This document shows positions 24,470 through 58,189 of a stretch of DNA of 64,000 bases, piece by piece. A program made the position numbers and the translations under genes. The first letter of the stretch is position 1; each line of letters begins with the position of its first letter. The notes below the pieces were generated by a model. That model worked only from the letters and a program-made list of their open reading frames with translations. It was not told the DNA's origin and did no database searches. Origin of the DNA: Escherichia coli (GTDB taxonomy: Bacteria > Pseudomonadota > Gammaproteobacteria > Enterobacterales > Enterobacteriaceae); assembly GCF_024700885.2 (NCBI RefSeq), contig NZ_CP117016.1; one strand, 5' to 3'.

Positions 24470-25723
24470 ATGCTGGAACAAATGGGCATTGCCGCGAAGC
24501 AAGCCTCGTATAAATTAGCGCAACTCTCCAGCCGCGAAAAAAATCGCGTGCTGGAAAAAATCGCCGATGAACTGGAAGCACAGAGCGAAATCATCCTCAA
24601 CGCTAACGCCCAGGATGTTGCTGACGCGCGTGCCAATGGCCTTAGCGAAGCGATGATTGACCGTCTGGCACTGACGCCCGCACGGCTGAAAGGCATTGCC
24701 GATGATGTGCGCCAGGTGTGCAACCTCGCCGATCCGGTGGGGCAGGTAATCGATGGTGGCGTGCTGGACAGTGGCCTGCGTCTGGAGCGCCGTCGCGTGC
24801 CGCTGGGTGTGATTGGCGTGATTTATGAAGCGCGGCCGAACGTGACGGTTGATGTCGCTTCGCTGTGCCTGAAAACCGGTAACGCAGTGATCCTGCGTGG
24901 TGGCAAAGAAACCTGTCGCACTAACGCTGCAACGGTGGCGGTGATTCAGGACGCCCTGAAATCCTGCGATTTACCGGCAGGCGCAGTACAAGCGATTGAT
25001 AATCCTGACCGCGCGCTGGTCAGTGAAATGCTGCGTATGGATAAATACATCGACATGCTGATCCCGCGTGGTGGCGCTGGCCTGCATAAACTGTGCCGCG
25101 AACAGTCGACGATCCCGGTGATCACAGGTGGTATAGGCGTATGCCATATTTATGTTGATGAAAGTGCAGAGATCGCTGAAGCCCTGAAAGTAATCGTCAA
25201 CGCGAAAACCCAGCGTCCGAGCACATGTAATACGGTTGAAACGTTGCTGGTGAATAAAAACATCGCCGATAGCTTCCTGCCTGTGTTAAGCAAACAGATG
25301 GCTGAAAGCGGTGTGACGTTACACGCCGATGCTACCGCACTGACGCAATTGCAGGCAGGTCCCGCGAAGGTGGTTGCTGTTAAAGCTGAAGAGTATGACG
25401 ATGAGTTTCTGTCATTAGATTTGAACGTCAAAATCGTCAGCGATCTTGACGATGCCATCGCCCATATTCGTGAACACGGCACACAACACTCCGATGCGAT
25501 CCTGACCCGCGATATGCGCAACGCCCAGCGTTTTGTTAATGAAGTAGATTCATCCGCTGTTTACGTTAACGCCTCTACGCGTTTTACCGACGGCGGCCAG
25601 TTTGGACTGGGCGCGGAAGTGGCGGTAAGCACACAAAAACTCCACGCGCGTGGCCCAATGGGGCTGGAAGCGCTGACCACTTACAAGTGGATCGGCATTG
25701 GTGATTACACCATTCGTGCGTAA
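24470..25723 (+). CDS. proA: Gamma-glutamyl phosphate reductase
   Basis: 417 aa aldehyde dehydrogenase family; coupled to proB. Confidence 0.95.
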
Positions 25724-25837
25724 ATAAAACCGGGTGATGCAAAAGTAGCCATTTGATTCACAAGGCCATTGACGCATCGCCCGGTTAGTTTTAACCTTGT
25801 CCACCGTGATTCACGTTCGTGAACATGTCCTTTCAGG

Positions 25838-25913
25838 GCCGATATAGCTCAGTTGGTAGAGCAGCGCATTCGTAATGCGAAGGTCGTAGGTTCGACTCCT
25901 ATTATCGGCACCA
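25838..25913 (+). tRNA. thrW: tRNA-Thr (anticodon CGU)
   Basis: GCCGATATAGCTCAGTTGGTAGAGCAGCGCATTCGTAATGCGAAGGTCGTAGGTTCGACTCCTATTATCGGCACCA; cloverleaf with anticodon loop tTCGTAAt. Confidence 0.95.
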
Positions 25914-26077
25914 TCACCTAGTTTTCCCAAGTCAACCCACATCAACAAAATCATTTAAAAACATATATATTACGTTGTTTTCATACGTTTGAGGTCAACC
26001 CTTGTCTCTTGAAATCAACACGCGGTTGGGGGCACAATCAGGGGCATGTTCTGTTCGGTCTAGGAAATGTGCCCCCA

Positions 26078-27268
26078 ATGATGCTGAATGCCCGCAAGGT
26101 TGAAGCTGCGAAAGGAAAAGAGAAGAGCTACAAGCTGTTTGATGGAGGTGGCCTATATCTTCAGGTCGAACCTAATGGCTCGCGTTACTGGCGTATGAAA
26201 TACCGTTTTGCTGGTAAAGAGAAACGATTGTCCTTTGGTGTTTATCCAACAGTCACACTTGCTGATGCCAGACAAAAACGAGAAGACGCGAAGAAACTAC
26301 TCGCAGCAGGTGAAGATCCCGGCGAAGTCAAAAAAGCCAAAAAGCAGGCTTTAAATGCAGCGATTGAGACACTTAACCCATTCAGAGAAGTGGCGTTAGA
26401 GTGGCACAAAATGAAATCACCCAAATGGTCTGAGGGCTATGCTTCCGACATCATTGAGGCATTCGAGAAAGACATTTTCCCGCATATTGGGCACAGACCT
26501 ATAGCTGATATTCAGCCCCTTGAACTGCTTGAAGTTCTGAGATTGATAGAAGCTCGAGGCGCTATGGAGAAAGCGAAGAAAGTCCGTCAGCGATGCGGTG
26601 AAGTTTTTCGCTATGCCATCGTAACGGGTAGGGCAATCTACAATCCGGCACCGGATCTTGCCAGTGCGATGCAAGGACATGAAGCAGTCCACTATCCATT
26701 CCTCAAAGCCAACGAACTACCGGAGTTCTTTAATGCCCTTAATTCTTATTCAGGAAGTCCAATTGTATTGTTGGGGGCGCATTTACTTATCCTGACAGGT
26801 CTACGAACTGGAGAACTACGAGCAGGTGAGTGGCGAGAGGTGGATTTTGATAATGCGGTGTGGGAGATCCCAAAAGAACGTATGAAAATGCGTAGGAGCC
26901 ATATTGTCCCGTTGTCAAAACAAGCATTATCCCATCTCAAAAGTTTGAAAGAACTAACTGGGAACTACCCGCTGATGTTCCCTGGACGCAACGATCCTAG
27001 CAAATTTATGAGTGAAGCAAGCATTAATCAGGTGTTTAAACGTATTGGATATGCAGGGCGTGTTACGGGGCATGGTTTCAGGCATACGATGAGTACAATC
27101 CTACATGAGAAAGGATTTAACAGCGCTTGGATTGAAACCCAGCTTGCTCATTCGGACAAAAACTCTATTCGTGGAATTTATAACCATGCCCAATATCTCG
27201 AAGGGAGAAGAGAAATGATGCAATGGTATGCTAATTATTTATCTGAGCTAATTGGTACTCATAAATGA
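26078..27268 (+). CDS. int: P4-type tyrosine integrase (track ORF begins at 26009; likely start MMLNARK)
   Basis: N-terminus ...YKLFDGGGLYLQVEPNGSRYWRMKYRFAGKEKRLSFGVYP (P4 integrase arm-binding domain); catalytic HGFRHT...Y near the C-terminus. Confidence 0.9.
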   Translation: MMLNARKVEAAKGKEKSYKLFDGGGLYLQVEPNGSRYWRMKYRFAGKEKRLSFGVYPTVTLADARQKREDAKKLLAAGEDPGEVKKAKKQALNAAIETLNPFREVALEWHKMKSPKWSEGYASDIIEAFEKDIFPHIGHRPIADIQPLELLEVLRLIEARGAMEKAKKVRQRCGEVFRYAIVTGRAIYNPAPDLASAMQGHEAVHYPFLKANELPEFFNALNSYSGSPIVLLGAHLLILTGLRTGELRAGEWREVDFDNAVWEIPKERMKMRRSHIVPLSKQALSHLKSLKELTGNYPLMFPGRNDPSKFMSEASINQVFKRIGYAGRVTGHGFRHTMSTILHEKGFNSAWIETQLAHSDKNSIRGIYNHAQYLEGRREMMQWYANYLSELIGTHK

Positions 27269-28089
27269 ATATTTTAAAAATTAATAATACTGATTCTCTG
27301 CTCAGAGATTACTACCAGTTGGATGAAGCTTCAGAAAAAATTGGTTGTAGTGAAAAGGATATACTCTGGTTTGCCAGAGAACGAGATGTAGAGCTATGCA
27401 TGGAATTCCATGATGATGAGTATGATGTTTCATGTGGTTTGAAGATTGATGGTCAAATGGATGAGTTCTTATCTAATCTGAAATATTTACCACGAGATAG
27501 AAATGGCAATATTATGTTGTCAGACTTAAGTTCTATAAGAATCCCTGATGAAGATAATTTAATTGATAAAAATGGTTTTATTCGATGTTTCATATCCGGT
27601 TTATGGGCTGTTGATTATGAATATAAAGATCTGTTAGTTAAGCATGAGGGGCAACCGGATTCCTGGCCTATTCATTTTCTACTGGCGGGTACGCCTAATA
27701 TAAATTGTAAGGTAATTCTTTATGTAAATTATGATGAAAAAGAAAATTATTATCTTTTTGAGGTTTTGTGGATTACAAAGGTACAGATTCAAAAATTCAT
27801 TGATATAGTCTTATGCGAACAAAAGCGGATAAAAAACGCCAATAAATATAAATCACAATCTGAGGCGCAAAAACAAAAACATGCTGTTCCTCGAGCTGAA
27901 ATACTCATGGCTATTATTTCGCTCTATCATCGTGATATGAGGCTAAGAAGAGAGAGTCCAGCAGCGATAGCTGATTATCTTTTTCAACATGCCAGTGAGT
28001 TCTGGCCTAAGACCGGAGAACCGCCTTTGAGCTATGATACTGTTGTTAGTTTGCTACGTAGTTGCATGAAAAACACTAAGTTTAACTAA
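27265..28089 (+). CDS. Hypothetical 274-aa protein, AT-rich, with an N-terminal HTH_17/AlpA-like helix-turn-helix; overlaps the integrase stop by 4 nt
   Basis: YQLDEASEKIGCSEKDILWFARE resembles Xis/AlpA/MerR-type HTH; the remainder has no recognisable motif; markedly lower GC than int. Confidence 0.5.
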   Translation: MNILKINNTDSLLRDYYQLDEASEKIGCSEKDILWFARERDVELCMEFHDDEYDVSCGLKIDGQMDEFLSNLKYLPRDRNGNIMLSDLSSIRIPDEDNLIDKNGFIRCFISGLWAVDYEYKDLLVKHEGQPDSWPIHFLLAGTPNINCKVILYVNYDEKENYYLFEVLWITKVQIQKFIDIVLCEQKRIKNANKYKSQSEAQKQKHAVPRAEILMAIISLYHRDMRLRRESPAAIADYLFQHASEFWPKTGEPPLSYDTVVSLLRSCMKNTKFN

Positions 28090-28214
28090 ATATTAACAAT
28101 TATTGTGGCTAATGATTTTGGATTTTTTTCATTAGTCACATTTTTCTCATTTATAACCTATGTTTTAATTTTCCGTGTTGAAGCCAATAGACTTAGATAA
28201 ACGGAGAATGATGA

Positions 28215-28421
28215 ATGTTATCTAAACATGATAATACTACTTTGCAACGACCTTCAATGGATTCTCTGATCGATATGAAGTTTATTACTTCCGATTGTTT
28301 ATTAAGTGATAAATGGATTTATCGATTGATTTCTCTGAATCGCTTTCCAAAACCTATAAAAATAGGTCGGATGTCACGATGGCGCGCTGCTGATTATTAT
28401 AAGTGGCGAGATGGGTTTTAA
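28215..28421 (+). CDS. alpA: AlpA-family prophage transcriptional regulator
   Basis: 68 aa; ...DKWIYRLISLNRFPKPIKIGRMSRWRAADYYKWRD matches the AlpA HTH pattern. Confidence 0.75.
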   Translation: MLSKHDNTTLQRPSMDSLIDMKFITSDCLLSDKWIYRLISLNRFPKPIKIGRMSRWRAADYYKWRDGF

Positions 28422-28537
28422 GAAAACTCAGGTCAACATTTTGAGGGAATGAGAAATAAGGCAAGAGCAATTAATAAAGGGAATAGATTATCACCTACTC
28501 CCTAAGCCTTAATTGATAGTTAGTAATATTTAACTGA

Positions 28538-28711
28538 TTAGCCTTTAGGGTCAATCCCGCGTGATTGGAGTTCTTTGCGTAAAATTCTTTTAATCCAAGT
28601 TGCCAACGCGCTATCTCCATCTTTGCGCATTTCGTTTTCGAGTTGCAACCTAAAATCGTCGGTAAGACGCATTTGGAATGGTGGAGAACGTTTCTCTTGT
28701 GGTGTTGACAT
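28538..28711 (-). CDS. Ribbon-helix-helix (Arc/CopG-like) small DNA-binding protein, 57 aa; below the ORF-track cutoff
   Basis: Minus-strand translation MSTPQEKRSPPFQMRLTDDFRLQLENEMRKDGDSALATWIKRILRKELQSRGIDPKG; beta-strand then two helices typical of RHH. Confidence 0.6.
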   Translation of the reverse strand: MSTPQEKRSPPFQMRLTDDFRLQLENEMRKDGDSALATWIKRILRKELQSRGIDPKG

Positions 28712-28751
28712 GGTAATTACCCTAGAATATGATGACTACATGGTAATTACC
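28709..28751. promoter_or_regulatory. Two copies of CATGGTAATTACC (10-bp perfect palindrome GGTAATTACC), 30 bp apart; the first overlaps the RHH start codon; candidate operator
   Basis: Direct reading; spacing equals three helical turns; position at the divergent promoter region. Confidence 0.55.
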
Positions 28752-28842
28752 ATTGTAAGTATAGTTCGCTTGTAAAAGCAATGCCCGATTGTGCGGGAAC
28801 ACAAATCGGGCATTTAACCAACCGTTATAAGAGGTAACGAAG

Positions 28843-29016
28843 ATGGCTAAACAGAAGTGTACTTGGTTATTTGCGGCGATCAACCGCAGTCAACGCAATG
28901 CCCGTCCTGTGATGTTAAGGATCACCGCAGATAACGAGCGGTCAGCGCGGCGCAGACTTGCCCCGGACTATGTACTGAGCTTTGCCGGGCGCATTCCCTG
29001 CGGAGGTGAACATGCG
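28843..29016 (+). CDS. Small hypothetical ORF (57 aa), stop overlapping the next ORF start (ATGCGTAA)
   Basis: MAKQKCTWLFAAINRSQRNARPVMLRITADNERSARRRLAPDYVLSFAGRIPCGGEHA; translational-coupling geometry; no homology recognised. Confidence 0.35.
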
Positions 29017-29371
29017 TAATTATCCGCACCCCGGCGAACGCTGGCAGCATGAACGTGGCTGGACGGTCACGATTATCCGATTAATAGAAGCATCGCCCTC
29101 TGTGGCACTGGTTAATCCTGAATTCAGCTGTGAAGTGCTGATACGTCATGACAGCGACAACCAGCTTTCTTCCTGCCCTCTGGCATGGTTTGAACAGCGG
29201 TATACGCGCCTGTTTGATGTACCGCTCTTTAAGCCTGCACCAGCTCCTGCAGGCGGTAGTGGTTCCGGCCCGCTGACACTGCATCCGTCTGTGCTATTTA
29301 TCCGCTGGCGGGAGCGTAGCATATGGCGTTCTGCTGAGCCTGACGACGGTCACTATTCAAAGTTTCTCTGA
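29012..29371 (+). CDS. Hypothetical protein (start at MRNYPHPGERW)
   Basis: ORF in the island early-gene cluster; Gly/Pro linker in the middle. Confidence 0.45.
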   Translation: MRNYPHPGERWQHERGWTVTIIRLIEASPSVALVNPEFSCEVLIRHDSDNQLSSCPLAWFEQRYTRLFDVPLFKPAPAPAGGSGSGPLTLHPSVLFIRWRERSIWRSAEPDDGHYSKFL

Positions 29372-29402
29372 CAAAATACCGCTGAAAACGGAGTAATCCA
29401 CG

Positions 29403-29687
29403 ATGAATATTTCAAACGGGCACAACGGTGCTCAGGGCCACACTTTGCCTGAAAAACACAATACCGGTGCTTTTGCCTATGGGTTGTCAGAGGACAGTTT
29501 CGGAAAGCTGACCCGCGCAAGAAATGCCTGCGACATGCTCCAGCTTCTCTTTTCTGAATACCCGTCTCAGGCCGGAGCACTGGACGCTGGCTGTGCGCAT
29601 GGTGTCGCCGCGCTGATGGAGTACCTGCTGGCAGATTTGACGGATATTGCACACAGCTGCGCACTGATTGAAGGAGGTGCCAGATGA
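29403..29687 (+). CDS. Hypothetical protein, 94 aa
   Basis: ORF with AGGA-like ribosome-binding site; 4-nt overlap with the next ORF. Confidence 0.45.
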   Translation: MNISNGHNGAQGHTLPEKHNTGAFAYGLSEDSFGKLTRARNACDMLQLLFSEYPSQAGALDAGCAHGVAALMEYLLADLTDIAHSCALIEGGAR

Positions 29688-30067
29688 ACCAGCCGCAGGT
29701 TTCCATTTTCCCGGCAGAAATGACCACCGCGCTTTACCGGCGGGCTATTGCTTCAGCATGGCGGCAGAAAATGCTGAACGAAACTGGCAGTGATCAGTAT
29801 GGTCCGCACAGCCTGACGGTGGAGCGTATTGAAATGGCCATTGCGCTGCATATCGAGTGCGTACTGATTAACGAGTACGGCGAAGTGCAGGGCGCCGCTG
29901 CCGCGCTGGCACTGCTGACTGACATGCTGGAGCCGTCACTGCTGACCGCGCCGCCGGTACTGACCGCGCGCGGCTGTGAAGTGATGGCGGAGATGTACCG
30001 CACGCTTCCGGCGGCCTTTGATGACTTCTGCAGTACCGGTGTGACGTTGTATGAGGGGGAAGTATGA
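29684..30067 (+). CDS. Hypothetical protein, 127 aa; stop overlaps the primase start
   Basis: Coupled series of ORFs upstream of the alpha-like primase. Confidence 0.45.
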   Translation: MNQPQVSIFPAEMTTALYRRAIASAWRQKMLNETGSDQYGPHSLTVERIEMAIALHIECVLINEYGEVQGAAAALALLTDMLEPSLLTAPPVLTARGCEVMAEMYRTLPAAFDDFCSTGVTLYEGEV

Positions 30068-32736
30068 CAATACAGACGGTTACGCAGATTTCAGCCGCCG
30101 CACGGGGGAAATGGCCCGTTATTCTGCAGATGCTGCGTATTGATGTACCTGAAAACGGCAGGCACGGTCCCTGCCCGAAATGTGGGGGCAAGGATCGTTT
30201 TCGCCTTGATGACCTTGACGGGCGCGGGACGTGGATCTGCAGCCAGTGTGGCAATGGTGACGGTCTGGATCTGGTTAAGCTCGTAACCGGTTACAGCGTC
30301 AGAAAGGCTGCGCAGGAGGTGGCGCAGGTGCTTAATGTGCCGAATATGCAGGAACTGCCTGTTAAGCCTGCCAGACAAAAAGCCCCTAAACGCGACATGG
30401 GTCTTACCGTGGCGGCGCTGATGAAAGAGAGCCACACGGGAGAAAGCGCCTATCTGACAGGAAAAGGGTTCGCCGGATACCCGGCCTCTCTGACCGGAAG
30501 CGTGCAGCATATCAGCGGTAAGGATTTCCCTGCCGGTTCCCTGCTGTTACCACTCACGACCAACACCGGAGCCGTGACCGGTGCACAGCTTATCGCCCCG
30601 ACGGGTGAAAAAAGCATACTGCCCGGCAGCACGATGAAAGGCGCGTTTGTGTCGCTCAGCCCGTTACCGTCTGAACCACCGGTACAGGTGGTGATTACCG
30701 AAGGTTACGCTACGGCGCTGACGGTAAGTCAGCTCACTGCCGGATGCGTAGTGGCTGCCATATCTGCGGGCAACCTGCCCAATGTGGCGCAGTCGCTGCG
30801 GGCACGCTGGCCTGAGGTAAAAATTATCATCGCCGGTGATAACGATTTTCAGGACGGAGATGAGAATCCCGGCAGAGCCTTTGCTGAACGGGCGGCAAAA
30901 GCTGTTGGCGGCTGGATGACGCTGCCACCAGGAGAGATTAAGGCTGACTGGAATGACTTTCATCGGGAGCACGGTATTACCCGTGCCCGTGAAGCCTTTC
31001 GCAACGGTCTGGTACTGTGCGGGGAAGGCCGCACGCAACTGCCGCACGGGTTCCGTCTTACCCAGGAATATCTCTGGTATGAAAAGCAGGTACAGCGCAA
31101 CGGTGAGACGGAGATCCAGAACGTCAAAATATGCAGCCCGCTGCGCGTGACGGCAATCACCTGCGATGCCGATGGCGGTAACTTCGGACGACTGCTGGAA
31201 TGGGAAGATACGTGGGGTGAGTGTCGCCGCTGGGCGATGCCGATGGAAATGCTGAGCGGCAGTGGTGAGGAACTGCGCCGGGTACTGCTGGTTAACGGGC
31301 TGTCTTATATCAGCACCACCGGTGAGGCACGCGCACGCCTGATGGAATATATCTCACTGTGTAAACCGGAACGCCGCGTGACCTGCGTCAGTCGTACTGG
31401 CTGGCATGGTCAGGTTTACGTCCTGCAGGATGAGGTCAGCGGTGAAGGTGCAGAGGGTGTCATTCTCCAGACCACTTCCGTGCAGGGGCGTGATTTCCGC
31501 GTGTCGGGCACAACAGAGGAATGGCGGGAGCATGTATCCCGCTACTGTACCGGCAACTCCCGCGTGGCATTTGCTGTCAGCCTGGCCTTTGCTGCACCAC
31601 TGTTACGGCTGGTTGGTATGGACGGCGGCGGCTACCACCTCAAAGGGGAATCGACAGACGGTAAGACCACCACCATGAAAGCGGCAACCTCCGTCTGCGG
31701 CGGGCCTGACTACTGGCAGACATGGCGGGCCACCGGCAACGCGCTGGAGGGATGCGCCAGCCGCCGCAACGATGCCGCCATGATGCTTGATGAGATCCGG
31801 GAAGTTGACGGACGCGAGGCAGGCAATATCGCCTACATGCTGGCAAACGGTCAGGGCAAGGGCCGTGCCGGTACGGACGGTGAGCTGCGTACCCGTAAGC
31901 AGTGGCGCCTGTTGTTCTTTTCAACTGGCGAGTTGTCTCTGACCGAACATGCGGCAAAGGCCGGTGAGCGTACTTTTGCCGGGATGGAAGTCAGGATGAT
32001 CCAGATCCCCAGCGATTCCGGGAAGTTTGGCGTTTTTGAGGAGCTGCACGGCTTCGACAGCGGCAAGGCTCTGGCAGAGCATCTTGAATGGGCCACGTCC
32101 TGCTACTACGGTTCGCCGTTCCGGGAGTGGCTGAAAGCACTGACCGCTGATCTTAACGGACTAACGGCACAGGCAAAATCGCTGATGAAGGAATATGCTG
32201 CCGCCCTGACTCCGAAAGATGCAGGCAATCAGGTGGGCCGGGCTGTGAACCGCTTTGCTCTGGTGGCGATGGCAGGTGAACTGGCAACCCGTCTGGGTAT
32301 CACCGGCTGGCCTGAGGGTGAAGCACTGCGGGCAACCCGCGTCTGCCTGAACGCATGGCTGAAAGATCGCGGGCACACCGCCAATCAGGAAGATATCGCC
32401 GCACTGGAGCAGGTTCGCAGTTTCTTTACCGCGAATCAGTACAGCCGCTTTGCAGACTGGTATGACGAGCGCAACCGCCCCGGCAATATGGTGGGCTGGC
32501 GCAGGGTGGAGAAAGGCAGTACCGCGCAGGGCACGGAAGCTGTCACTACGTTCTATGTCATGCCGTCCGGCTGGAAAGAAATCTGCAGGGGATTTGACCC
32601 GCGCAAGGTGGCGCGTCTGTGCGCAGATCGTGGATACCTGCTGCCCTCCACAGATGGCAAACTCCAGACAACCATTCGCCCGCCAGAGATGAATCCCCGC
32701 AGGCTCTATGTCTTCAACAGCGAGGTGCCTGGTTAA
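30064..32736 (+). CDS. P4 alpha-like bifunctional primase-helicase (zinc-binding primase, Toprim and D5/P-loop NTPase domains)
   Basis: CPKCGG...CSQCG zinc ribbon near the N-terminus; Toprim-like ITEGYATALT...IIAGDND; Walker A GESTDGKTT; 890 aa. Confidence 0.85.
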   Translation: MTIQTVTQISAAARGKWPVILQMLRIDVPENGRHGPCPKCGGKDRFRLDDLDGRGTWICSQCGNGDGLDLVKLVTGYSVRKAAQEVAQVLNVPNMQELPVKPARQKAPKRDMGLTVAALMKESHTGESAYLTGKGFAGYPASLTGSVQHISGKDFPAGSLLLPLTTNTGAVTGAQLIAPTGEKSILPGSTMKGAFVSLSPLPSEPPVQVVITEGYATALTVSQLTAGCVVAAISAGNLPNVAQSLRARWPEVKIIIAGDNDFQDGDENPGRAFAERAAKAVGGWMTLPPGEIKADWNDFHREHGITRAREAFRNGLVLCGEGRTQLPHGFRLTQEYLWYEKQVQRNGETEIQNVKICSPLRVTAITCDADGGNFGRLLEWEDTWGECRRWAMPMEMLSGSGEELRRVLLVNGLSYISTTGEARARLMEYISLCKPERRVTCVSRTGWHGQVYVLQDEVSGEGAEGVILQTTSVQGRDFRVSGTTEEWREHVSRYCTGNSRVAFAVSLAFAAPLLRLVGMDGGGYHLKGESTDGKTTTMKAATSVCGGPDYWQTWRATGNALEGCASRRNDAAMMLDEIREVDGREAGNIAYMLANGQGKGRAGTDGELRTRKQWRLLFFSTGELSLTEHAAKAGERTFAGMEVRMIQIPSDSGKFGVFEELHGFDSGKALAEHLEWATSCYYGSPFREWLKALTADLNGLTAQAKSLMKEYAAALTPKDAGNQVGRAVNRFALVAMAGELATRLGITGWPEGEALRATRVCLNAWLKDRGHTANQEDIAALEQVRSFFTANQYSRFADWYDERNRPGNMVGWRRVEKGSTAQGTEAVTTFYVMPSGWKEICRGFDPRKVARLCADRGYLLPSTDGKLQTTIRPPEMNPRRLYVFNSEVPG

Positions 32737-32770
32737 GGCTTTGCGTGAGTCTTATTTATTAAGGGTAACA

Positions 32771-32958
32771 GGTGAAACAGGTGGAACAACCGTATTTTAC
32801 AGGGCTGAACCTGTTCCACCTTCTGAAATAGTGAGGTGGAACAGATGTAACGCCAGCCAATCCGCTGTTCCACCTTGTTACCCGCGATGTTCCACCGGTG
32901 CAGTGTATATAAATGCCTTATAAAACAAAGCCGTAACACATGTTTCACCTGTTCCACC
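32771..32958. repeat. Iteron cluster (replication origin): at least 8 copies of TGTT(C/T)CACC / GGTG(G/A)AACA in both orientations, plus an AT-rich patch
   Basis: Copies at 32771, 32780, 32811, 32836, 32864, 32888, 32941, 32949; the motif is one base off the P4 ori/crr repeat TGTTCACC bound by alpha. Confidence 0.7.
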
Positions 32959-33136
32959 GCATCAGGGACATAAAGCAGACTGAAACAGAGGGCATTTTTA
33001 TCTGGCTGGCTTTCATAGCCACGTCTGAATAACCGCAAGCGCCCGTTGTGCCAGCCACCACACACTGAACACCGATAGTGTGCTTGTGTCAGCCACGACA
33101 CAATTGACGTAACGAACCAACCCGACAGGAGAAGTC

Positions 33137-33880
33137 ATGAACAATACCGCAGTAAATAACAACCTTTCCACTTTTCCGGCTGTAACGCAGCGGGCACTGG
33201 AAACCATGAACACAGCCAGAAACGCATGGCTTGAAGCACGTCGTCAGCAGAAAGCGGCAGCGGATAATATTGCGACAATCCGCCAGCGTCGCGCTGAAAT
33301 GGAAGCCACGACGAACACACTGAATGAGGAGTGGCGCACGCTGTTTCGTGAAAGTCAGGGCGTGATCTCAAAGGAAATGAAAAAACTGCGCACGGAAATT
33401 GCGCTGGGACGAGAAACGCTTGAGGATTTTGATGAGCTGCTGGCGGCTCAGGAAAGCGAAAATGCACTTTTGCCGCAGAAAGCTGCAGAATTAGCCGGAA
33501 AGTATATCCACGCGCATAACATTCTTGTGGATATTCGCGCAAAACAAATCTGGGAGGATTTTATGCAGTCGCATGGAAAAGTGCTTATTCAGACGCTGAG
33601 CCTGCTTAAATCCACAATGGGCCGGGAAGCCAGTGCCGTTGTGGGTGTGGTGAATTCAGTTAATGACCCGGACACAGTGCTGAAAGACTTTATTCATAAA
33701 TATATCACCAGACCGGCTCTGGCTAACGATGCGATGCCTGAGCAGGACCCGGTGTTTAAACTGGCGGGAGTTGCCCCGGATTATGCGGCGCGTCTGGATT
33801 TCAGTAATCAACTCTCTCCGGCAGCTATGCATAAAATTAAGGTTCGTCAGGAACTTGCTGAGAAGGAGAAAGCAGTATGA
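33137..33880 (+). CDS. Hypothetical alpha-helical or coiled-coil protein, 247 aa
   Basis: A/E/R/Q-rich predicted helices; size and position are only suggestive of a Sid-like scaffold protein. Confidence 0.45.
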   Translation: MNNTAVNNNLSTFPAVTQRALETMNTARNAWLEARRQQKAAADNIATIRQRRAEMEATTNTLNEEWRTLFRESQGVISKEMKKLRTEIALGRETLEDFDELLAAQESENALLPQKAAELAGKYIHAHNILVDIRAKQIWEDFMQSHGKVLIQTLSLLKSTMGREASAVVGVVNSVNDPDTVLKDFIHKYITRPALANDAMPEQDPVFKLAGVAPDYAARLDFSNQLSPAAMHKIKVRQELAEKEKAV

Positions 33881-34428
33881 CGGCCCGAGGCACGCCTGAC
33901 CAGGCACTTACCAGTTTTCGGAATGCCCGTATTCTGTGGGCCGGACATAATGAGAGCCGAAAAGCCGTTGAACAACAGATAACATCTCTCCTCGCTGCCA
34001 CAGAAAAACCAGCAGATTATGCCCGACAGCTCGAATTACTGCGGGAACGTCTGGATGTGCTGAAATGGCAAATTAACTGTGCTGCGCGCGAATGCATTTA
34101 CTCGCAGCATTTACTGATGGAGGCCTGCACAGAAGCCGCTCTCAGCAATTTTATGCAGGCGAATGGGGCAGCCCTGACATCTGCACTGGCTCCGTTCCTG
34201 AAGGGGCGCGGAGGGGTTGACGTTGCGTCCCGTATATTACGCAGTGCTCTGGTTCGCCAGCTGGCAATAACACCGCCTGAATTTGCCGGGGATTATCGTG
34301 AGATCCTGGATGAATCCGGTTTGATGCTTGACCCCGGGATGATTCGTGATTGCCAGGGTTCTTACACCCCGGCACAACATCTGCGTTTTCAGCAACGCCT
34401 GAATGACATTAACGATATACAGGAGTGA
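33877..34428 (+). CDS. Hypothetical protein, 183 aa, coupled to the previous ORF
   Basis: 4-nt overlap with 33137..33880. Confidence 0.45.
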   Translation: MTARGTPDQALTSFRNARILWAGHNESRKAVEQQITSLLAATEKPADYARQLELLRERLDVLKWQINCAARECIYSQHLLMEACTEAALSNFMQANGAALTSALAPFLKGRGGVDVASRILRSALVRQLAITPPEFAGDYREILDESGLMLDPGMIRDCQGSYTPAQHLRFQQRLNDINDIQE

Positions 34429-34433
34429 TATTA

Positions 34434-34706
34434 ATGGCACTTAAATGTCCGGAATGCGGTACAGTTGCACACGCCAGAACAGCAGCCTATGAAGCTCCGT
34501 CAGTTAAACGCTCGTGGTATCAGTGCCAGAATCTGGAATGTTCCTGCACATTTACGGCACTGGAGAGTGTGGATAAGATAATCATGAAACCCCGGCGCAA
34601 TGAACAGGAACCAGACAAATCACAAACCCCGGTAAAACAACAGCAAACGCTCAATCGCTATGGCTCCGCGTCAAAACTGTCAAGCCGTCAGCAGATTCCT
34701 GTCTGA
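34434..34706 (+). CDS. Ogr/Delta-family zinc-finger late transcription activator (start at MALKCPECG)
   Basis: CPECG-N-H...YQCQNLECSCTF four-Cys zinc-finger pattern of P2 Ogr and P4 Delta. Confidence 0.8.
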   Translation: MALKCPECGTVAHARTAAYEAPSVKRSWYQCQNLECSCTFTALESVDKIIMKPRRNEQEPDKSQTPVKQQQTLNRYGSASKLSSRQQIPV

Positions 34707-35299
34707 TTAGAAAAAAAATGCCCACGTAATCCCGGTCGAGTACTGGGATTTTTAACACCTTACCCCTGGCTGGCCTGAGAGCGCATGAGTGCATGTCTAT
34801 GGCGCATGAAAACGCATGAGTCTCATGCACCATTTTTGACGCGAAAGCCCTTGTGTGGTGGCTTCTGAGACGATTAATGAGGTGCATGAAAACCAGTCTG
34901 TTAAGTGAAGCGGGAAGGCGTGCGGGGCTGCGCACGTAGCAGGGTTAAATGGTCAATTCTGGCGCAGCTCACGACATTAAGTCAGCCTCAATAGATGTAC
35001 GTGTTGGTAGGGGTAATTCGCTACTTTTTTGTATCCTAAATTGTATGGTTTGATGCTGATCGTTTCTTCACCGCACCTGCAGAGATATCAATTCAATGTG
35101 GACAAAAATGAGTCTGGCTCTTTCCGTATCACTAGAATTGCCAGTATTGTTAGGGATGATGCCCATATCATACGGAGGGAGCCAGTGGGGGCGATTGCGC
35201 GTGGAAAGTGCTTTGGATTTATTCATCGGTTTTATGATTCTACATAAGGAGCAAAGGTACTTGTATCGTATGAAAAAAAATAGTATAGATATAATGCTC

Positions 35300-35525
35300 C
35301 TTACGCGTTATGGCATAGTTATATGCTAGTCGGGCGATTAGCCAGACTCGAACTTATTGAACGGTATTAGGGTTGCGCTTGGTGTGCCTCTGGATTGCAC
35401 TCCATGCTGTCGCGCAATCCAGAGGCACACCAAGCGCTTCCTTTAGGTAAGTGAGTAAAAACAGCACCTTCTTCGATTTATGATGAAGGTGCTGCAATCG
35501 TAACGTTTTTTGTATACACGGATAG
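35300..35525 (+). ncRNA. Candidate retron non-coding RNA (msr-msd): 63-nt perfect hairpin 35375-35437 plus a second hairpin 35462-35494; boundaries and a1/a2 unresolved
   Basis: A perfect long inverted repeat immediately upstream of an effector-RT operon is the hallmark of msd; TATAAT at 35291. Confidence 0.5.
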
Positions 35526-35529
35526 TATA

Positions 35530-36498
35530 GTGGCTGAGACATACGAAGATAAAGTTGCTAATCATGTTTCAGAGTGGGAAATGGAAAATTTCCGTGTATG
35601 TTATGATGATCAGGTTATTTTCTTATGTGGTGCGGAAGTACTTCCTCAAGGAAGTGTTCAGACTTCAATGAGAGGGCATTTTTATCACTATTGCCTGAAT
35701 AAAAATAAAGATATAGCTGATAAAATAATTCTTGCCGAAAACTTCAAAAAATATCTTCAAAATAATCATTATCCAGACTTAATAACTTTTGAGCATGATG
35801 TTGCAAGTATATCTAGTTTAGTTGTTATTTTCTTGGAAAGCAGTGGTTCAATTGCTGAGTTAGGTGTTTTCTGTAATATTAGTGATGTCAATAAAAAATT
35901 ATTGATATTTGTTCCATCAGATGAAGTTGAAGGTGACAAGAAAGAGTCTTTCATTTACTTAGGGCCTTTATTGTTTTTAAAAGAAAAGGTCAATGAAAAA
36001 GCATTTAAGATTTATCCAAAACCCACTAATGGTTCTGATTACTCCGAGCATTTAGAGATTATGGCTGATGACTTGGCTGAACTATTACCTAGAAGTGGTA
36101 AGTTTGAAAGCTTCGATCCTGACAATTTAGGGCATATAGCTTTTCTTATATGCAGAATTGTGCATTTAGTAATGCCTATTAAGCTAAAGGAAATATTAAA
36201 TTGTTTAAAAATAATAGGTATCAATAAATATACTCTGACTGAGGTTGAAAGAATTTTGTTTTTATTGGAAACATTGGGTTTTATAAATATTTATCCGTAT
36301 GGCGATTTAAAATACTATTATTCAATGCAAGCCAGGCAAAATCTTAAATTAGGGAAAAATAAAACCGGATTCACAATCGATGAGGCTGGTATTTTTACTG
36401 ATATTAGTGTTTTTATCAATGACAATAAATTATGTAGTGATAAAAAAAGACGGCTGGTTTTGAAAGGCATTAAGGAGAAGCATAATGGACATAATTAA
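35530..36498 (+). CDS. Retron effector: nucleoside 2-deoxyribosyltransferase-like N-domain plus winged-helix-like C-domain (GTG start at 35530 or ATG at 35578)
   Basis: VIFLCGAEV and ESSGSIAELGVF resemble the NDT P-loop-like and catalytic-Glu motifs; overlaps the RT start by 14 nt; AT-rich. Confidence 0.6.
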   Translation: MAETYEDKVANHVSEWEMENFRVCYDDQVIFLCGAEVLPQGSVQTSMRGHFYHYCLNKNKDIADKIILAENFKKYLQNNHYPDLITFEHDVASISSLVVIFLESSGSIAELGVFCNISDVNKKLLIFVPSDEVEGDKKESFIYLGPLLFLKEKVNEKAFKIYPKPTNGSDYSEHLEIMADDLAELLPRSGKFESFDPDNLGHIAFLICRIVHLVMPIKLKEILNCLKIIGINKYTLTEVERILFLLETLGFINIYPYGDLKYYYSMQARQNLKLGKNKTGFTIDEAGIFTDISVFINDNKLCSDKKRRLVLKGIKEKHNGHN

Positions 36499-37417
36499 AA
36501 AAATCGCAGATGAAACTCTAATGCCGGTATCAAAAGTATCTGCTTTTATATTTACAGCCCCATATAGATATAAAGTATATCCCATCCCCAAAAGGAATGG
36601 TGGGTTTAGGGAGATTGCTCAACCGTCAAGGGCATTAAAGTTTATGCAAAGGATTGTTATTGCTGAACTAGAGAAAGTACTTAAGGTTCATGAAAACGCA
36701 TATGCTTATGTCAAAGGACGTAGTATAAAAGATAATGTGGAAAAGCATCAAAGAAACTCTTATATTTTGAAAGTTGATTTCTGCGACTTTTTTAATAGCA
36801 TAAACCCTTACGACCTTGAGTTATGTTTAAAAAACAATGGGTTAGACTCATTGTTAAGCTCACAAGAATTATTGAATAAACTTTTTTTCTATAAGAAAAG
36901 TAAAAGAGGTGCTTTATCAATGAGCATCGGGGCACCTAGTTCTCCATTTTTGTCAAATGCGATTATGTATAAGTTTGATTCAGTCATTAGTGATATGTGT
37001 TCAAATAAAAATATTACTTATACAAGATATGCTGATGATCTTACATTTTCTACTAATGAAAAAGGTATTTTGTATGAATTCATACATGAAATAGATAAAG
37101 TTCTTGAGGAGATAGATAGTCCTAAATTAAAACTAAATGATAAGAAAACCATATTTGCATCTAAAAAATGCAATCGTCATATAACAGGAATTGTTATTAA
37201 TAACGAAGAAAAACTTTCAATTGGTAGAGATAAAAAACGTTACTTAAGTAGTTTAATTCATAAATTCTCGCTTAATGCACTTAATGAGGAAGGAGTTGAA
37301 CATTTAAAAGGGTATTTGGCGTATGTAAATAAAATTGAACCTTCATTCATTAGCAGAATGAAAAGGAAATATGGAGTCGAAGTTGTCAACTCCATAATCA
37401 CATTTAATCCATTATAA
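36485..37417 (+). CDS. Retron-type reverse transcriptase, 310 aa
   Basis: RT motifs LKVDFCDFFNSI, SIGAPSSPFLSNAIMY, YTRYADDLTF (YADD) and the retron-specific ITGIVIN (VTG) motif. Confidence 0.85.
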   Translation: MDIIKKIADETLMPVSKVSAFIFTAPYRYKVYPIPKRNGGFREIAQPSRALKFMQRIVIAELEKVLKVHENAYAYVKGRSIKDNVEKHQRNSYILKVDFCDFFNSINPYDLELCLKNNGLDSLLSSQELLNKLFFYKKSKRGALSMSIGAPSSPFLSNAIMYKFDSVISDMCSNKNITYTRYADDLTFSTNEKGILYEFIHEIDKVLEEIDSPKLKLNDKKTIFASKKCNRHITGIVINNEEKLSIGRDKKRYLSSLIHKFSLNALNEEGVEHLKGYLAYVNKIEPSFISRMKRKYGVEVVNSIITFNPL

Positions 37418-37894
37418 ATGTGAACTTATTATATTTATAATGGTTGTGCTTTTTTCTTGTACCTTAGGGGTGTAAAAGAATGTCATCATGAAGATAATTA
37501 AAAAATGAATGGCAATAAGAGTAATAGGTAACATTTTTTCAATATCACTTAAATGGCGATGCCTTTTTTGTGTAATAACTTCCTCTTCTCTTTTGAAAGG
37601 AGTTATACCTATCTTGACCTCCATCTCCTGAATTACTGTAAACTTAGCAGCATTAATTCTTTTATAGGAAGTAATTAGATTTATCCAATAGATATTAATT
37701 ACGACTCCAGCGAGAGAGATTAAGATTACCCAAATAGGCTGTATTGTTGGCTTTAAAGAAAAATATCCAACAAGCGGTAAAATAGAAGAGTTTAAGGCTA
37801 ATAAAAATGTATTTGACTTAAGTCTTCGATCACTTATTCTATCCGCCATCTCAACGCATGTTTTATATATTTCTATGACTTTATCATCCGTCAC
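37412..37894 (-). CDS. Small multi-TM membrane protein (160 aa), SLATT-like topology; convergent on the RT, last gene before attR
   Basis: N-terminal amphipathic segment followed by 2-3 hydrophobic helices (ILPLVGYFSL..., IWVILISLAGVVINIYWINLI, LPITLIAIHFLIIFMMTFFY); AT-rich. Confidence 0.5.
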   Translation of the reverse strand: MTDDKVIEIYKTCVEMADRISDRRLKSNTFLLALNSSILPLVGYFSLKPTIQPIWVILISLAGVVINIYWINLITSYKRINAAKFTVIQEMEVKIGITPFKREEEVITQKRHRHLSDIEKMLPITLIAIHFLIIFMMTFFYTPKVQEKSTTIINIISSHL

Positions 37895-38137
37895 TAATAG
37901 TATCCTTATAAATTTCTGAGTTGTTCAAATAAATGTTATCATATATTTTTATCAACGTAATATGTATTTTTACGTATTTTTAACTGTGAGAGATACATAG
38001 TGATTGTTGGGTGCATGTACAATCCTTGATACTTAACAATGAAAGCGTAGTTGTGGGGGGGGGGCATATTTGGGGGCATTACTATTTAATCTTTCTTGAT
38101 TTTTATTATAAAACAACTGGTTGTATTGATGTTTTGT

Positions 38138-38153
38138 TCCTATTATCGCACCA
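38138..38153 (+). repeat. attR: TCCTATTATCGCACCA, a 15/16 match to the thrW 3' end
   Basis: Direct repeat of 25897-25913 lacking one G. Confidence 0.7.
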
Positions 38154-38280
38154 TTTAAATCAAGTAGTTACCTCACATTCAATTACACCACATTTTCCTC
38201 CTGTGCCGTATTTGTGCCATTGTAACCCTGGCAATTCATCAAAATACTGTTCTGACATCAGGCAGTGCAGGTGCAGACAT

Positions 38281-38496
38281 TTAAGCCAATTGCTGCCGCC
38301 ATTCCTTGACGTGGTCAATCAGGGCGCGGAGCTTTGGTGCAATATTGCGACGCTGTGGGAAATACAGATAGAAGCCCGGAAATTGTGGAAGAAAGTCATC
38401 AAGCAGCGATACAAGCTTACCGCTTTCAATATATGGCCTGAAAGTTTCCTGAGTGGCAATTGTTATGCCTGCGCCGGCAAGAGCCAGCCTCAACAT
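38281..38496 (-). pseudogene. C-terminal 71-aa fragment of a LysR-family regulator (yagP-like remnant) just outside attR
   Basis: LTTR C-terminal pattern ...KLVSLLDDFLPQFPGFYLYFPQRRNIAPKLRALIDHV with no N-terminal HTH. Confidence 0.6.
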
Positions 38497-38589
38497 CAGA
38501 CGCAGATCATTCTGCTAATCCCACCGATGCTTCGGTCTGGAGTGGTAAATTAATATTGGACACAGTTTTATTTTCTCTCTTTTTCGAGG

Positions 38590-38900
38590 GCTATATGAAC
38601 AGGAAGAATACATCCCTAAGCGGTTAATGCTGGCGTAATCAATAGACCAGCATTAATCACAGATGATTACCAATCAGACAGAAATGGTTAAATCGTCGAA
38701 TTCATATTTAATACGTTTTCTTACGCCGCTGAGCAACTTGAAAGCAGGAAAAGGATGTATATTTTAAATATCAGTGAAGTGAACAGTTTATTGCCGTTAT
38801 TAATAGAGATGGAGGAATAAATAGGCGTATTCTACTATTGCAACAAAAACAACGATAATGATCAGTTTTCATAATGAAGTAACCTGACAGATATAAAAAT
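38590..38900. repeat. Degenerate paralogous copy of the ykgO 3' end fused to the ykgR upstream region and coding sequence (about 28-nt internal deletion, frameshifted)
   Basis: 38600-38730 aligns with 57207-57340; 38740-38885 aligns with 58030-58190. Confidence 0.6.
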
Positions 38901-39079
38901 GTTGATTGAGGCTAAATGCCCGGATGAAGGTTGTCGAGGGAGCCAGGTGGTTTTTTCTTTTGGGTGATCTCCATTGCTGGATAGTCCTCTCTTTCTCGCT
39001 CAAAGCAGACCCTGGAATTGAATGCAGAGGGACTACCTGACACAATTTTGCACAGTGAAGAGTCGGTCGTTATTAACGT

Positions 39080-39964
39080 TCAGATTTTCAATGTATCAAT
39101 GACCATCCGCAGGGCGGGGGAGACGTTGCGATGAGGGTAATAGAGAAACAATCCCTCCATTCGCAGGCTGTAACGCTGCAACACCCTGATAAGCTTACCG
39201 TGTTCTAAATCATCCGCGACCAGTTCAACAGGAACATAGGCCAATCCGAGGCCCAGCCGGGCTGCTTCTGCTTCCATATAGCTGTCGGATAAGGCCCATT
39301 GCCCTTCAGGGCGATGAGTGATTTTTTTATCATCCTGATTGAGTTCCCACTGGTATACGCTGCCGTCGGCAAACTGATAGGCGATACAGGGATGCGCCTT
39401 TAAATCCGCCGGGGTTTGCGGAAAACCATAGCGACGAAAATGTTCCGGAGTCCCCACAATTGCCATCTCCATATCGGGCGTGATGCGTACCGCGACCATA
39501 CCCTGGCCGACTTCAGGCCCCAGGCGGACACCTGCATCGAATCTTTCCTCGATGATATCGACGAACCGGCTCTCATTTATCAGTTCAAGCCGGATATCAG
39601 GATATCTCTGTTTAAATACCGCCAGCTTTGGCAGCAGGCATTTATCAATCGCGTGCTGGCTGGCATTGATACGCACCGTGCCGGAGGGCGTCTCTCGATA
39701 GTGCGCCAGCGTGGCAAGCCCAAGATCTAACATTTCAAATCCAGATGCCGTCTTCTGGTAGAGCTGCTCGCCTGCTTGTGTCAGCGACAGTTTACGCGTG
39801 GTGCGCACTAGCAGCTGGACGCCCAGCCTTTCTTCAAGCTCGCGAACAGAACGGCTGACTCCTGACTGAGCAAGACCCAGCCGCTGAGCCGCTGCGGTAA
39901 AGCTGCCTTCCCGCACCACCTGCATAAACAGGTACAGCTCGTTGTAGTTCTCCCTTTTCGCCAT
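39080..39964 (-). CDS. LysR-family transcriptional regulator
   Basis: N-terminal HTH (FMQVVREGSFTAAAQRLGLAQSGVSRSVRELEERLG) plus substrate-binding domain. Confidence 0.85.
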   Translation of the reverse strand: MAKRENYNELYLFMQVVREGSFTAAAQRLGLAQSGVSRSVRELEERLGVQLLVRTTRKLSLTQAGEQLYQKTASGFEMLDLGLATLAHYRETPSGTVRINASQHAIDKCLLPKLAVFKQRYPDIRLELINESRFVDIIEERFDAGVRLGPEVGQGMVAVRITPDMEMAIVGTPEHFRRYGFPQTPADLKAHPCIAYQFADGSVYQWELNQDDKKITHRPEGQWALSDSYMEAEAARLGLGLAYVPVELVADDLEHGKLIRVLQRYSLRMEGLFLYYPHRNVSPALRMVIDTLKI

Positions 39965-57753: not shown

Positions 57754-58087
57754 GCAAAGATACATGCTCATCCGGATCATTTCAACACCCAATCCCTGTG
57801 ACTATTTGTAGGATGTGGAATTTCCGCAACGGAGAAGTCTGGTATTGTTAGCAGCCATTGGCGACGCTCTCATAAACGCCTGGATGAGTGATTGATGATG
57901 GTTTCGCTGAGAGTATGAATTTTTCGAGAATGGAGGCTATCTCCACTTTACTGGCCGATGATTTATCGCAGTTTGATTGATTACCTGACAGCGTGTATTC
58001 CTCTCCCACGGATATAATAATTACTTACAAAAAAGGGAGAGGATGCATATTTTAAATATCACTGCAGTGAACAGTTTATTGCCGTTA

Positions 58088-58189
58088 TTAATAGAAATGG
58101 AGAAATAAATAGGCGTATTCTACAATTGCGACAAAAACAACGATATTAATCAGTTTATGACTGATTTGCTGTACTTTATTCTCTTTCAT
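58088..58189 (-). CDS. ykgR: Small membrane protein YkgR (33 aa)
   Basis: Minus-strand MKENKVQQISHKLINIVVFVAIVEYAYLFLHFY. Confidence 0.65.
   Translation of the reverse strand: MKENKVQQISHKLINIVVFVAIVEYAYLFLHFY

Follow-up and report, generated by a model that had tools for sequence, protein, structure and literature searches.

Is the reverse transcriptase gene on a 64,000-nt stretch of the Escherichia coli contig NZ_CP117016.1 (RefSeq assembly GCF_024700885.2; the whole stretch is hereafter called the window) part of an intact retron, and to which type does this retron belong? A preliminary description, made from the sequence alone, had proposed a retron with the order non-coding RNA (ncRNA), effector gene and reverse transcriptase (RT) gene, carried as cargo of a P4-like satellite. 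The three components were found as a 161-nt ncRNA (35296-35456), an effector gene (35530-36498) and an RT gene (36485-37417); the coordinates of all features are compiled in Table 1. Very probably, the locus is an intact type II-A1 (Sen2/St85-family) retron that is carried by a P4-like satellite and follows a tripartite toxin-antitoxin logic. It is an annotated member of a known family, as RefSeq lists it under ‘retron St85 family’ and both proteins are already named, yet it is uncharacterized and distinct from the Ec73, Eco9 and Sen2 types.

The two open reading frames (ORFs) and their overlap of 14 nt (36485-36498) were exactly as described before. When the RT was compared to profile models, it matched Pfam RVT_1 (1.4e-24) and scored well above the cutoff of NCBIfam NF038233 for the retron St85 family (347 bits, cutoff 235), and among the PADLOC models RT_II-A was the best match (6.6e-123), closely followed by RT_I-A (3.3e-117). 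The YADD motif that had been claimed for this protein is present at residues 182-185, but the VTG motif claimed along with it reads ITG (233-235, region Y); region X reads NVEKH (84-88). A Shine-Dalgarno sequence, AAGGAG, is located 8 nt before the RT start codon within the 3' end of the effector gene, and the 14-nt overlap also occurs in the relatives L084, L085, L087 and L089 (comparison loci are given by L numbers) and in the Ec73 locus. Judged from this arrangement, the start of RT translation appears to be coupled to the end of the effector gene.

We also considered that the RT is of another class, i.e. from a group II intron, a diversity-generating retroelement (DGR) or the abortive-infection and defense-associated RTs (Abi/DRT), and that the hairpin upstream is an unrelated terminator or repeat. 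The RVT_1 core is indeed common to all RTs, and weak matches to group II and DRT models were obtained, but these remained far under the respective cutoffs (67.5 bits against 300 for the group II intron model; 24-46 bits against 200-550 for the Drt models), whereas the retron St85 model was well over its own. Moreover, the closest solved structures are retron RTs, and an msr RNA above its gathering score is encoded directly upstream on the same strand. Neither an intron RNA domain nor a DGR template/variable repeat was detected, and a direct-repeat search of positions 25700-39200 returned only short repeats at chance level. We assign practically no probability to this explanation; whether the RT would cluster with group II or DGR enzymes had been raised before as the point at which the retron assignment could fail, and the scores (347 versus 67.5 bits) came out for the retron.

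The effector consists of an N-terminal N-glycosidase domain resembling nucleoside deoxyribosyltransferases (NDT-like), with the motif ESSGSIAELG and the putative catalytic residue E110, and a C-terminal winged-helix domain. The motifs FLCGAEV (residue 31) and SSGSIAELGVF (residue 104), by which the N-domain had been recognized earlier, are both present. The protein passed the NCBIfam model NF038232 (St85/STM3845 family; 224.5 bits, cutoff 100) and the PADLOC model NDT_II-A (2.3e-79), and its AlphaFold2 (AF2) model was confident, with a predicted local distance difference test score (pLDDT) of 88.4 and a predicted template modeling score (pTM) of 0.87. In Foldseek searches with this model, the best matches were 8qbl, 8qbk and 7xjg, all representing the Retron-Eco1 effector and covering both domains (E 2-4e-9), followed by the CMP N-glycosidases MilB/BcmB for the N-domain and by PadR, MecI/BlaI, SlyA and Fur-type winged helices for the C-domain. 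The structure prediction, named beforehand as another result that could speak against a retron, thus returned an NDT fold, and the winged-helix-like character suggested for the C-domain was borne out as well. E110 is invariant in 21 effector homologs, including the Ec73 effector, in which the aligned exchange E117Q abolishes defense (preprint 10.1101/2020.06.21.156273). The expectation that the system is probably a member of a known family rather than wholly new was also correct.

The ncRNA that had been postulated upstream of the effector gene is present. Rfam msr (RF00170) matches positions 35296-35365 with 53.4 bits (gathering 52), and the ncRNA begins at about 35296, so that the previously given locus start at 35300 lacks its first 4 nt. 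The minimum free energy fold of the 165-nt segment 35294-35458 (−83.4 kcal/mol, z = −9.2 compared to shuffled sequences) comprises a terminal stem formed by a1 and a2, two msr stem-loops and a long msd hairpin. This is the 63-nt perfect hairpin with a 24-bp stem noticed earlier, but it does not directly adjoin the effector gene: 92 nt, with a terminator-like hairpin among them, separate its end from the GTG start codon. It is the sole hairpin of such size in the window, the next three inverted repeats being imperfect palindromes of 17-20 nt. Of 37 more distant II-A1 effector genes, most are preceded at a distance of 60-170 nt by a hairpin of 18-29 bp, and the stem sequences are quite different, as is usual for retrons.

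To analyze covariation, the upstream regions of relatives with effectors 57-68% identical to that of the window were aligned. The a1/a2 stem of about 10 bp is retained through compensatory changes (GCTCC/GTGAG in the window, GCTTC/GAAAGC in L085, TAGCTCT/AGAGCTA in L089 and L003), and one pair of the msd stem covaries from T:A to G:C to C:G. A 12-nt inverted repeat (35268-35279 / 35506-35517) was rejected as a1/a2, as it is unconserved in relatives and the pair 35296-35304 / 35447-35456 covaries instead. Directly after a1, A35303, C35304, G35305 and G35307 (an ACG.G context) are invariant in five relatives, and because of this invariance G35305 is the likely branching guanosine. By analogy to known retrons, the predicted multicopy single-stranded DNA (msDNA) would be about 75-80 nt long and complementary to roughly 35368-35446. 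It contains neither a Dam (GATC) nor a Dcm (CCWGG) site and hence gives no clue to a trigger. In front of the ncRNA, the TATAGAT of the candidate promoter is kept in relatives.

Between ncRNA and effector gene, the sequence of the terminator-like hairpin is unrelated in four relatives (36-52% identity), while the position of hairpin and T-run is kept and several pairs are compensatory. Hairpin and T-run probably act as a terminator or attenuator that separates the ncRNA from toxin and RT expression and sets the ratio of ncRNA to mRNA. The preliminary description had overlooked this hairpin, as well as a convergent gene for a membrane protein of the 8xMP family that follows the RT gene.

Type II-A3 had been proposed for this locus, with Retron-Sen2 and Ec73 as its examples. 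In the scheme of Mestre 2020, however, II-A1 comprises Sen2 (St85), Vc81 and Ec73 with RTs of clade 1 and an IA/IIA1-type ncRNA, while Ec86/Vc137 constitute II-A3 with clade 9 RTs and an IIA3-type ncRNA; types I-A and II-A1 share the ncRNA-RT cassette (PMC7736814). The protein associated with the RT of the window has the NDT-like N-domain and DNA-binding C-domain of type II-A1 (PADLOC NDT_II-A, AF2), and the msr family is common to this locus and Sen2-type loci. In a phmmer search of the PDB, the best matches of the RT were the Ec78/Ec83 RTs (~1e-77), with Ec86 far behind (1e-34); matches of this kind, which place the RT closer to Ec78/Ec83 and St85-family RTs (43-51% identity) than to Ec86, were used to assign the clade. 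The II-A3 label was therefore rejected and replaced by II-A1.

Retron-Sen2 of Salmonella Typhimurium and Retron-Eco9 of E. coli NILS-16 (msrmsd-rcaT-rrtT) share with the window the order of ncRNA, NDT-like/DNA-binding effector and RT. With regard to Sen2, both window proteins pass the NCBIfam models named after it, the ncRNA belongs to the same Rfam msr family, and the flanks of the msd align to STnc400, which we take to be the Salmonella small RNA family corresponding to the Sen2 msd transcript. Identities were determined against the proxies L008, L010 and L011 (STnc400 97-127 bits, msr 72-73 bits) in place of the Sen2 proteins themselves, and amounted to 38-39% for the effector and 44-46% for the RT; among the 80 loci retained from the genome scan there were no Salmonella loci. 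The window differs in the sequence of the msd stem and in its location on a P4-like satellite, and it has a linked 8xMP gene that is missing from the Sen2-type proxies. Serines were published for RcaT-Eco9 at positions 155, 181, 254 and 292; the window effector carries N, D, I and I there, and no shift of the numbering brings the two into register, so that identity with Eco9 was rejected.

For Ec73 (Retron-Eco3), the locus L002 was used, a phiR73-like satellite at tRNA-Sec of E. coli M10 that was located by means of the published Ec73 primer fragments. Like the window retron, Ec73 is cargo of a P4-like satellite adjoining primase, psu and delta genes, with the same gene order and 14-nt overlap, and its catalytic Glu motif aligns with that of the window effector. 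Thus, the family relationship to Sen2 and Ec73 suggested earlier held, but Ec73 is a remote member: the effectors are 26% identical over about half of the length and the RTs 30%, and the Ec73 RT has 316 aa and VTG as compared to 310 aa and ITG here. Its ncRNA is unrelated in sequence and without an Rfam msr match at gathering score, its satellite uses tRNA-Sec instead of tRNA-Thr, and the gene after its RT is a rhuM fragment rather than 8xMP. On the basis of the low protein identities and the unrelated ncRNA, identity with Ec73 was rejected, too.

Two further retron types are informative. The type I-A retrons Ec78/Eco7 and Ec83/Eco4 provide the closest solved RT-ncRNA module and have the msr family in common with the window, and the type I-A RT of E. 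coli 19KM1776 is 43% identical to the window RT; their effectors, however, are PtuA, an ATPase, plus PtuB, an HNH nuclease, encoded downstream of the RT, whereas the window has an NDT-like protein upstream. Retron-Eco1 (Ec86, II-A3) is the only solved structure that resembles the window effector over both domains, with a sequence match of 1.1e-06 in the N-domain, but its RT is much more distant and of another clade, its ncRNA is of another type, and it is triggered by msDNA methylation while the predicted msDNA of the window lacks Dcm and Dam sites. When a phage collection was searched at the DNA level, a single match of 52 nt within msr was obtained from a Vibrio record, and no phiR73-like record; the protein search of this collection yielded only Pseudomonas Pf retron effectors with about 30% identity.

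How such a system would work can be drawn from its relatives. In the tripartite toxin-antitoxin systems Sen2 and Eco9, the toxin RcaT is neutralized by RT-msDNA, the RT gives specificity, and the msDNA is matured by RNase H and Exo VII (10.1101/2020.06.22.160168). The toxin is triggered when phage functions degrade the msDNA (RecE), methylate it (Dam) or disturb it in another way; other phage functions, such as RacC or the T7 kinase, block the toxin (10.1101/2020.06.22.160242). The Eco1 effector is an N-glycosidase hydrolyzing NAD(P)+ (PMC12673091); it sits in a filament of RT, msDNA and effector and acts after msDNA methylation. By analogy, the window RT would bind the msr stem-loops, prime from the 2'-OH of G35305 and copy the msd into an msDNA of ~75-80 nt folding as a 24-bp hairpin. 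The RT-msDNA complex would serve as antitoxin that binds the effector and keeps it inactive, supported by an excess of ncRNA over toxin/RT mRNA if the hairpin and T-run after the ncRNA end most transcripts. Once the msDNA is degraded, modified or sequestered by a phage product, the effector would be freed, its N-glycosidase domain (putatively through E110) would attack NAD(P)+ or nucleotides, and growth would stop before the phage cycle ends. Such abortive infection would shield both the clonal population and the satellite.

Several points weigh against this interpretation. The RT deviates from two classical motifs, with ITG for VTG and NVEKH for NAxxH, the effector is a distant relative of the Eco1 enzyme, with 15-18% identity in the structural alignment, and STnc400, although it aligns end to end with 35368-35486, stays below its threshold (53 bits, gathering 80). 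Analogy underlies the positions given for the branching G, for the ends of the msDNA and for the promoter, and msDNA production, toxicity and defense of the window retron are expected from the relatives Sen2, Eco9, Ec73 and Eco1. Neither the msd nor the RT sequence occurs in those supplements of the retron census that were searched, no experimental study of this retron was found in the literature, and the linkage of the 8xMP gene is left unaccounted for by a tripartite model.

The non-canonical RT motifs, and a consensus scan that found no strong promoter and did not call the candidate ncRNA promoter at 35261-35289, would also fit a silent or decaying relic that makes no msDNA and provides no defense. 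Against this stands that both ORFs are full-length compared to the family models, with YADD and E110 intact, and that the change from V to I in region Y, resulting in ITG, was also reported for the RT of the experimentally verified retron Vc81 (PMC6868368). Furthermore, relatives with 56-68% identity indicate purifying selection, with compensatory changes in the a1/a2 and msd stems. The locus was found in 23 of 5,426 complete E. coli genomes, 22 of which matched at 99% identity or more; the locus is identical in these 22 genomes, which came from various hosts and countries. The effector cluster is represented on no fewer than 1,000 contigs, belonging to E. coli, Salmonella enterica and Morganella, and the RT cluster adds Enterobacter as a fourth genus. 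A relic is consequently very unlikely, and we retain the intact II-A1 retron as the preferred reading.

Two observations concern the database records of these proteins. The UniRef name of the identical effector is an uninformative ‘Hmp’ (A3RLX4_ECOLX), and for both retron proteins many of the Salmonella and E. coli entries are incomplete; draft assemblies therefore seem to break frequently within the AT-rich retron locus.

The tripartite picture leaves two features of this sub-branch unexplained, a nearly invariant msd stem and the linked 8xMP gene. As for the first, the msd arms are 88-97% identical between the window and L084, L085, L089 and L003, whose proteins are 56-68% identical to those of the window, whereas identity in the same relatives is 74-87% for msr, 50-70% for the msd loop and 36-52% for the terminator hairpin. 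In the Sen2/Eco9 comparison, msr is 85% and msd 58% identical (10.1101/2020.06.22.160168). The near-invariance of the msd stem is thus unusual and the reverse of the Sen2/Eco9 pattern; as a pattern of sequence conservation, it suggests that the msDNA may be read in a sequence-specific manner in the sub-branch of the window retron.

The second feature is the 8xMP gene, whose product matches PF24838 (1.5e-28; 99.8 bits, cutoff 30), is called ‘RipA family octameric membrane protein’ in RefSeq and keeps the four family-invariant residues W70, K84, E103 and E119. In every close relative with enough sequence, the gene abuts the RT stop in convergent orientation with an overlap of 4-6 nt. These relatives come from genomes, metagenomes and IMG/VR, make up about nine distinct lineages and have effectors that are 53-68% identical, and the loci with a retron-linked 8xMP gene are L003, L084, L085, L087-L092 and L094-L100. 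No 8xMP gene was detected in 73 more distant II-A1 loci, and none next to Ec73. The pairwise identities of 8xMP are correlated with RT identities (r = 0.96) and with effector identities (r = 0.97), which is as tight as the correlation between RT and effector (0.97). L087 and L088 have different sequences beyond the cassette, yet 8xMP is retained within it.

Outside retrons, the family shows a different linkage. Of 2,574 representatives of PF24838 (E <= 1e-3), two fall into the retron-linked twig. Eleven non-retron members were sampled, and in eight of them (L093 4507-5438, L102, L103, L105, L106, L108, L110 and L111) the 8xMP gene comes directly after a small, co-directional gene for a ThsB-like TIR protein; among the other three, one follows a gene for an NB-ARC protein and two lie beside unannotated neighbors. 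The hosts of the TIR-linked genes belong to Proteobacteria, Actinobacteria, Firmicutes and Cyanobacteria and include two haloarchaea. The TIR-8xMP pair looks like an unnamed Thoeris-like two-gene module, for whose membrane partner PADLOC 2023 has no model. These modules have the Pfam family and the invariant residues in common with the window 8xMP, but they have a co-directional TIR partner, whereas the window has a convergent retron neighbor and no TIR gene. Both TIR and NDT-like domains are N-glycosidases that act on NAD or nucleotides, and their folds are related.

These data raise the alternative of a four-part system, in which 8xMP is a functional partner of the retron, e.g. a second effector that acts at the membrane in response to a product of the NDT-like N-glycosidase, or a modulator of or immunity factor against the toxin. 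The tight linkage and co-divergence, the intact invariant residues and the association of the remaining family with TIR genes all point in this direction, as does the fact that the retron loci have no TIR gene but do encode a relative of NAD(P)+-type N-glycosidases; the retron effector may thus substitute for TIR in this branch, with 8xMP acting downstream at the membrane. However, the window 8xMP gene runs opposite to the retron, has a terminator-like hairpin of its own (minus strand, 37396-37370) and presumably a separate promoter, which sets it apart from the TIR-8xMP pairs with their co-directional, overlapping genes; neighbors in a small P4 cargo slot may co-diverge merely through joint inheritance; and Sen2, Eco9 and Ec73 function as three-part systems without 8xMP. 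Further information was scarce: the AF2 monomer of 8xMP was of low confidence (pLDDT 69.5), searches of PDB, PHROG and PADLOC gave no match, domain fusions were uninformative, a metagenome scan returned retron-linked close relatives only, and nothing relevant was found in the literature on RipA, 8xMP or octameric membrane protein function. Taken together, a functional partnership is possible but rather unlikely, and it is more cautious to regard 8xMP as a transcription unit of its own that is co-inherited with the II-A1 retron in the small P4 cargo slot. In a specific form of the partnership idea, the NDT-like N-glycosidase, once freed from RT-msDNA, would kill by other or additional means than nucleotide depletion: it would generate or expose a signal, either a small molecule or a protein, through which an 8xMP membrane assembly is opened, so that the retron would feed a Thoeris-like arm, with the nearly invariant msd stem as sequence-specific docking or sensing surface; we regard this as doubtful.

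As a retron, the II-A1 locus adds little: publications already cover the family and its order of genes, the toxin-antitoxin logic and the carriage as P4 cargo. Its practical value is that of an uncharacterized E. coli/Salmonella retron with a clean 24-bp msd stem, a candidate for defense and genome-editing panels. The parts worth an experiment are the 8xMP linkage and the nearly invariant msd stem; if the link to 8xMP were functional, it would tie retrons to TIR-type signaling effectors and offer an initial way into a family that counts over 2,500 representative clusters.

Table 1. Positions of the retron, its neighboring gene and the carrier satellite in the 64-kb window
Feature	Position	Strand	Details and basis
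Candidate sigma-70 promoter of ncRNA	35261-35289	+	TTGTAT, 17 nt, TATAGA; read from the sequence
Retron ncRNA (msr-msd)	35296-35456	+	Rfam msr, fold, covariation
a1	35296-35304	+	GCTCCTTAC
Probable branching G	35305	+	Invariant context in relatives; by analogy
msr stem-loops	35311-35328 and 35329-35347	+	
msd	35366-35446	+	
msd hairpin	35375-35437	+	Arms 35375-35398 / 35414-35437, 24 nt, 100% complementary; 15-nt loop; 63 nt in total
a2	35447-35456	+	GTAAG-T-GAGT
Probable terminator/attenuator hairpin and T-run	35462-35511 (hairpin 35462-35494)	+	13-bp stem, one mismatch
Effector/toxin (RcaT-like), 322 aa, GTG start	35530-36498	+	PADLOC, NCBIfam, AF2, Foldseek
Retron RT, 310 aa, ATG start	36485-37417	+	Pfam, PADLOC, NCBIfam, motifs
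8xMP family membrane protein, 160 aa, convergent	37412-37894	-	Pfam PF24838; stop overlaps RT stop by 6 nt
tRNA-Thr (CGT), thrW	25838-25913	+	ARAGORN; 3' end 25896-25913 (CTCCTATTATCGGCACCA) is the left attachment repeat
Tyrosine integrase	26009-27268	+	ORF, RefSeq annotation of L001; PGAP start equivalent to 26078
P4 alpha-type primase/helicase (Zn-ribbon, Toprim, DUF927)	30064-32736	+	Pfam
Satellite late genes	33137-34706	+	sid-like with Psu fold 33137-33880, psu 33877-34428, ogr/delta 34425-34706
Right attachment repeat	38137-38153	+	TTCCTATTATCG-CACCA, imperfect copy of tRNA-Thr 3' end; 11-mer match

The carrier is a P4-like satellite, as had been proposed: an integrase, an alpha-type primase, sid-like, psu and delta genes and attachment (att) repeats derived from tRNA-Thr were all identified. 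It extends from 25896 to 38153 (~12.3 kb) between the tRNA-derived att repeats and has a DUF5375 gene between integrase and primase; in Pfam searches, its late genes matched Psu (2.2e-09 and 5.4e-43) and Ogr_Delta (7.2e-16). A search with the canonical P2/P4 cos 19-mer gave no match within 3 mismatches. The retron occupies the cargo slot after psu/delta, adjoining the att end, and together with the following gene it has 32% G+C compared to 50% for the window. Retrons are documented cargo of the P4 hotspot (PMC9122126).

Comparison with other genomes indicates how such cassettes move. In E. coli 19KM1776 (L083 3952-7807), thrW is directly followed by a type I-A retron (RT, PtuA, HNH) without a P4-like satellite in between; therefore, thrW is a recurrent landing site for retrons of the same RT clade. 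The closest retron-8xMP cassettes are located in P4-like satellites at tRNA-Sec, the phiR73 site (L089 6740-6830, L003 6165-6255), which means that the cassette has changed between satellites whose integrases differ. The window is chromosomal DNA of E. coli, and its segment 25868-51442 is 99.96% identical to E. coli strain elppa4 (L001). To the left of the satellite, elppa4 carries P22-like prophage genes (Arc-family repressor, tailspike, acyltransferase; L001 1-4241), where the window differs, so that the two strains have the satellite in common but not its left neighbor.

Just outside the right att repeat lies a fragment of a LysR substrate-binding domain (38281-38496, minus strand; a RefSeq pseudogene). 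A segment of 123 nt at 58034-58156 is 91% identical to L001 17497-17619, which is located shortly beyond the LysR fragment in elppa4. The fragment and the 123-nt repeat look like scars of earlier rearrangements at the integration site. Finally, ten consecutive G residues (38055-38064) occur in the 243-nt spacer that separates the 8xMP start codon from the right att repeat. They may form a tract close to the 8xMP promoter that is liable to slippage, or else a homopolymer prone to sequencing errors.

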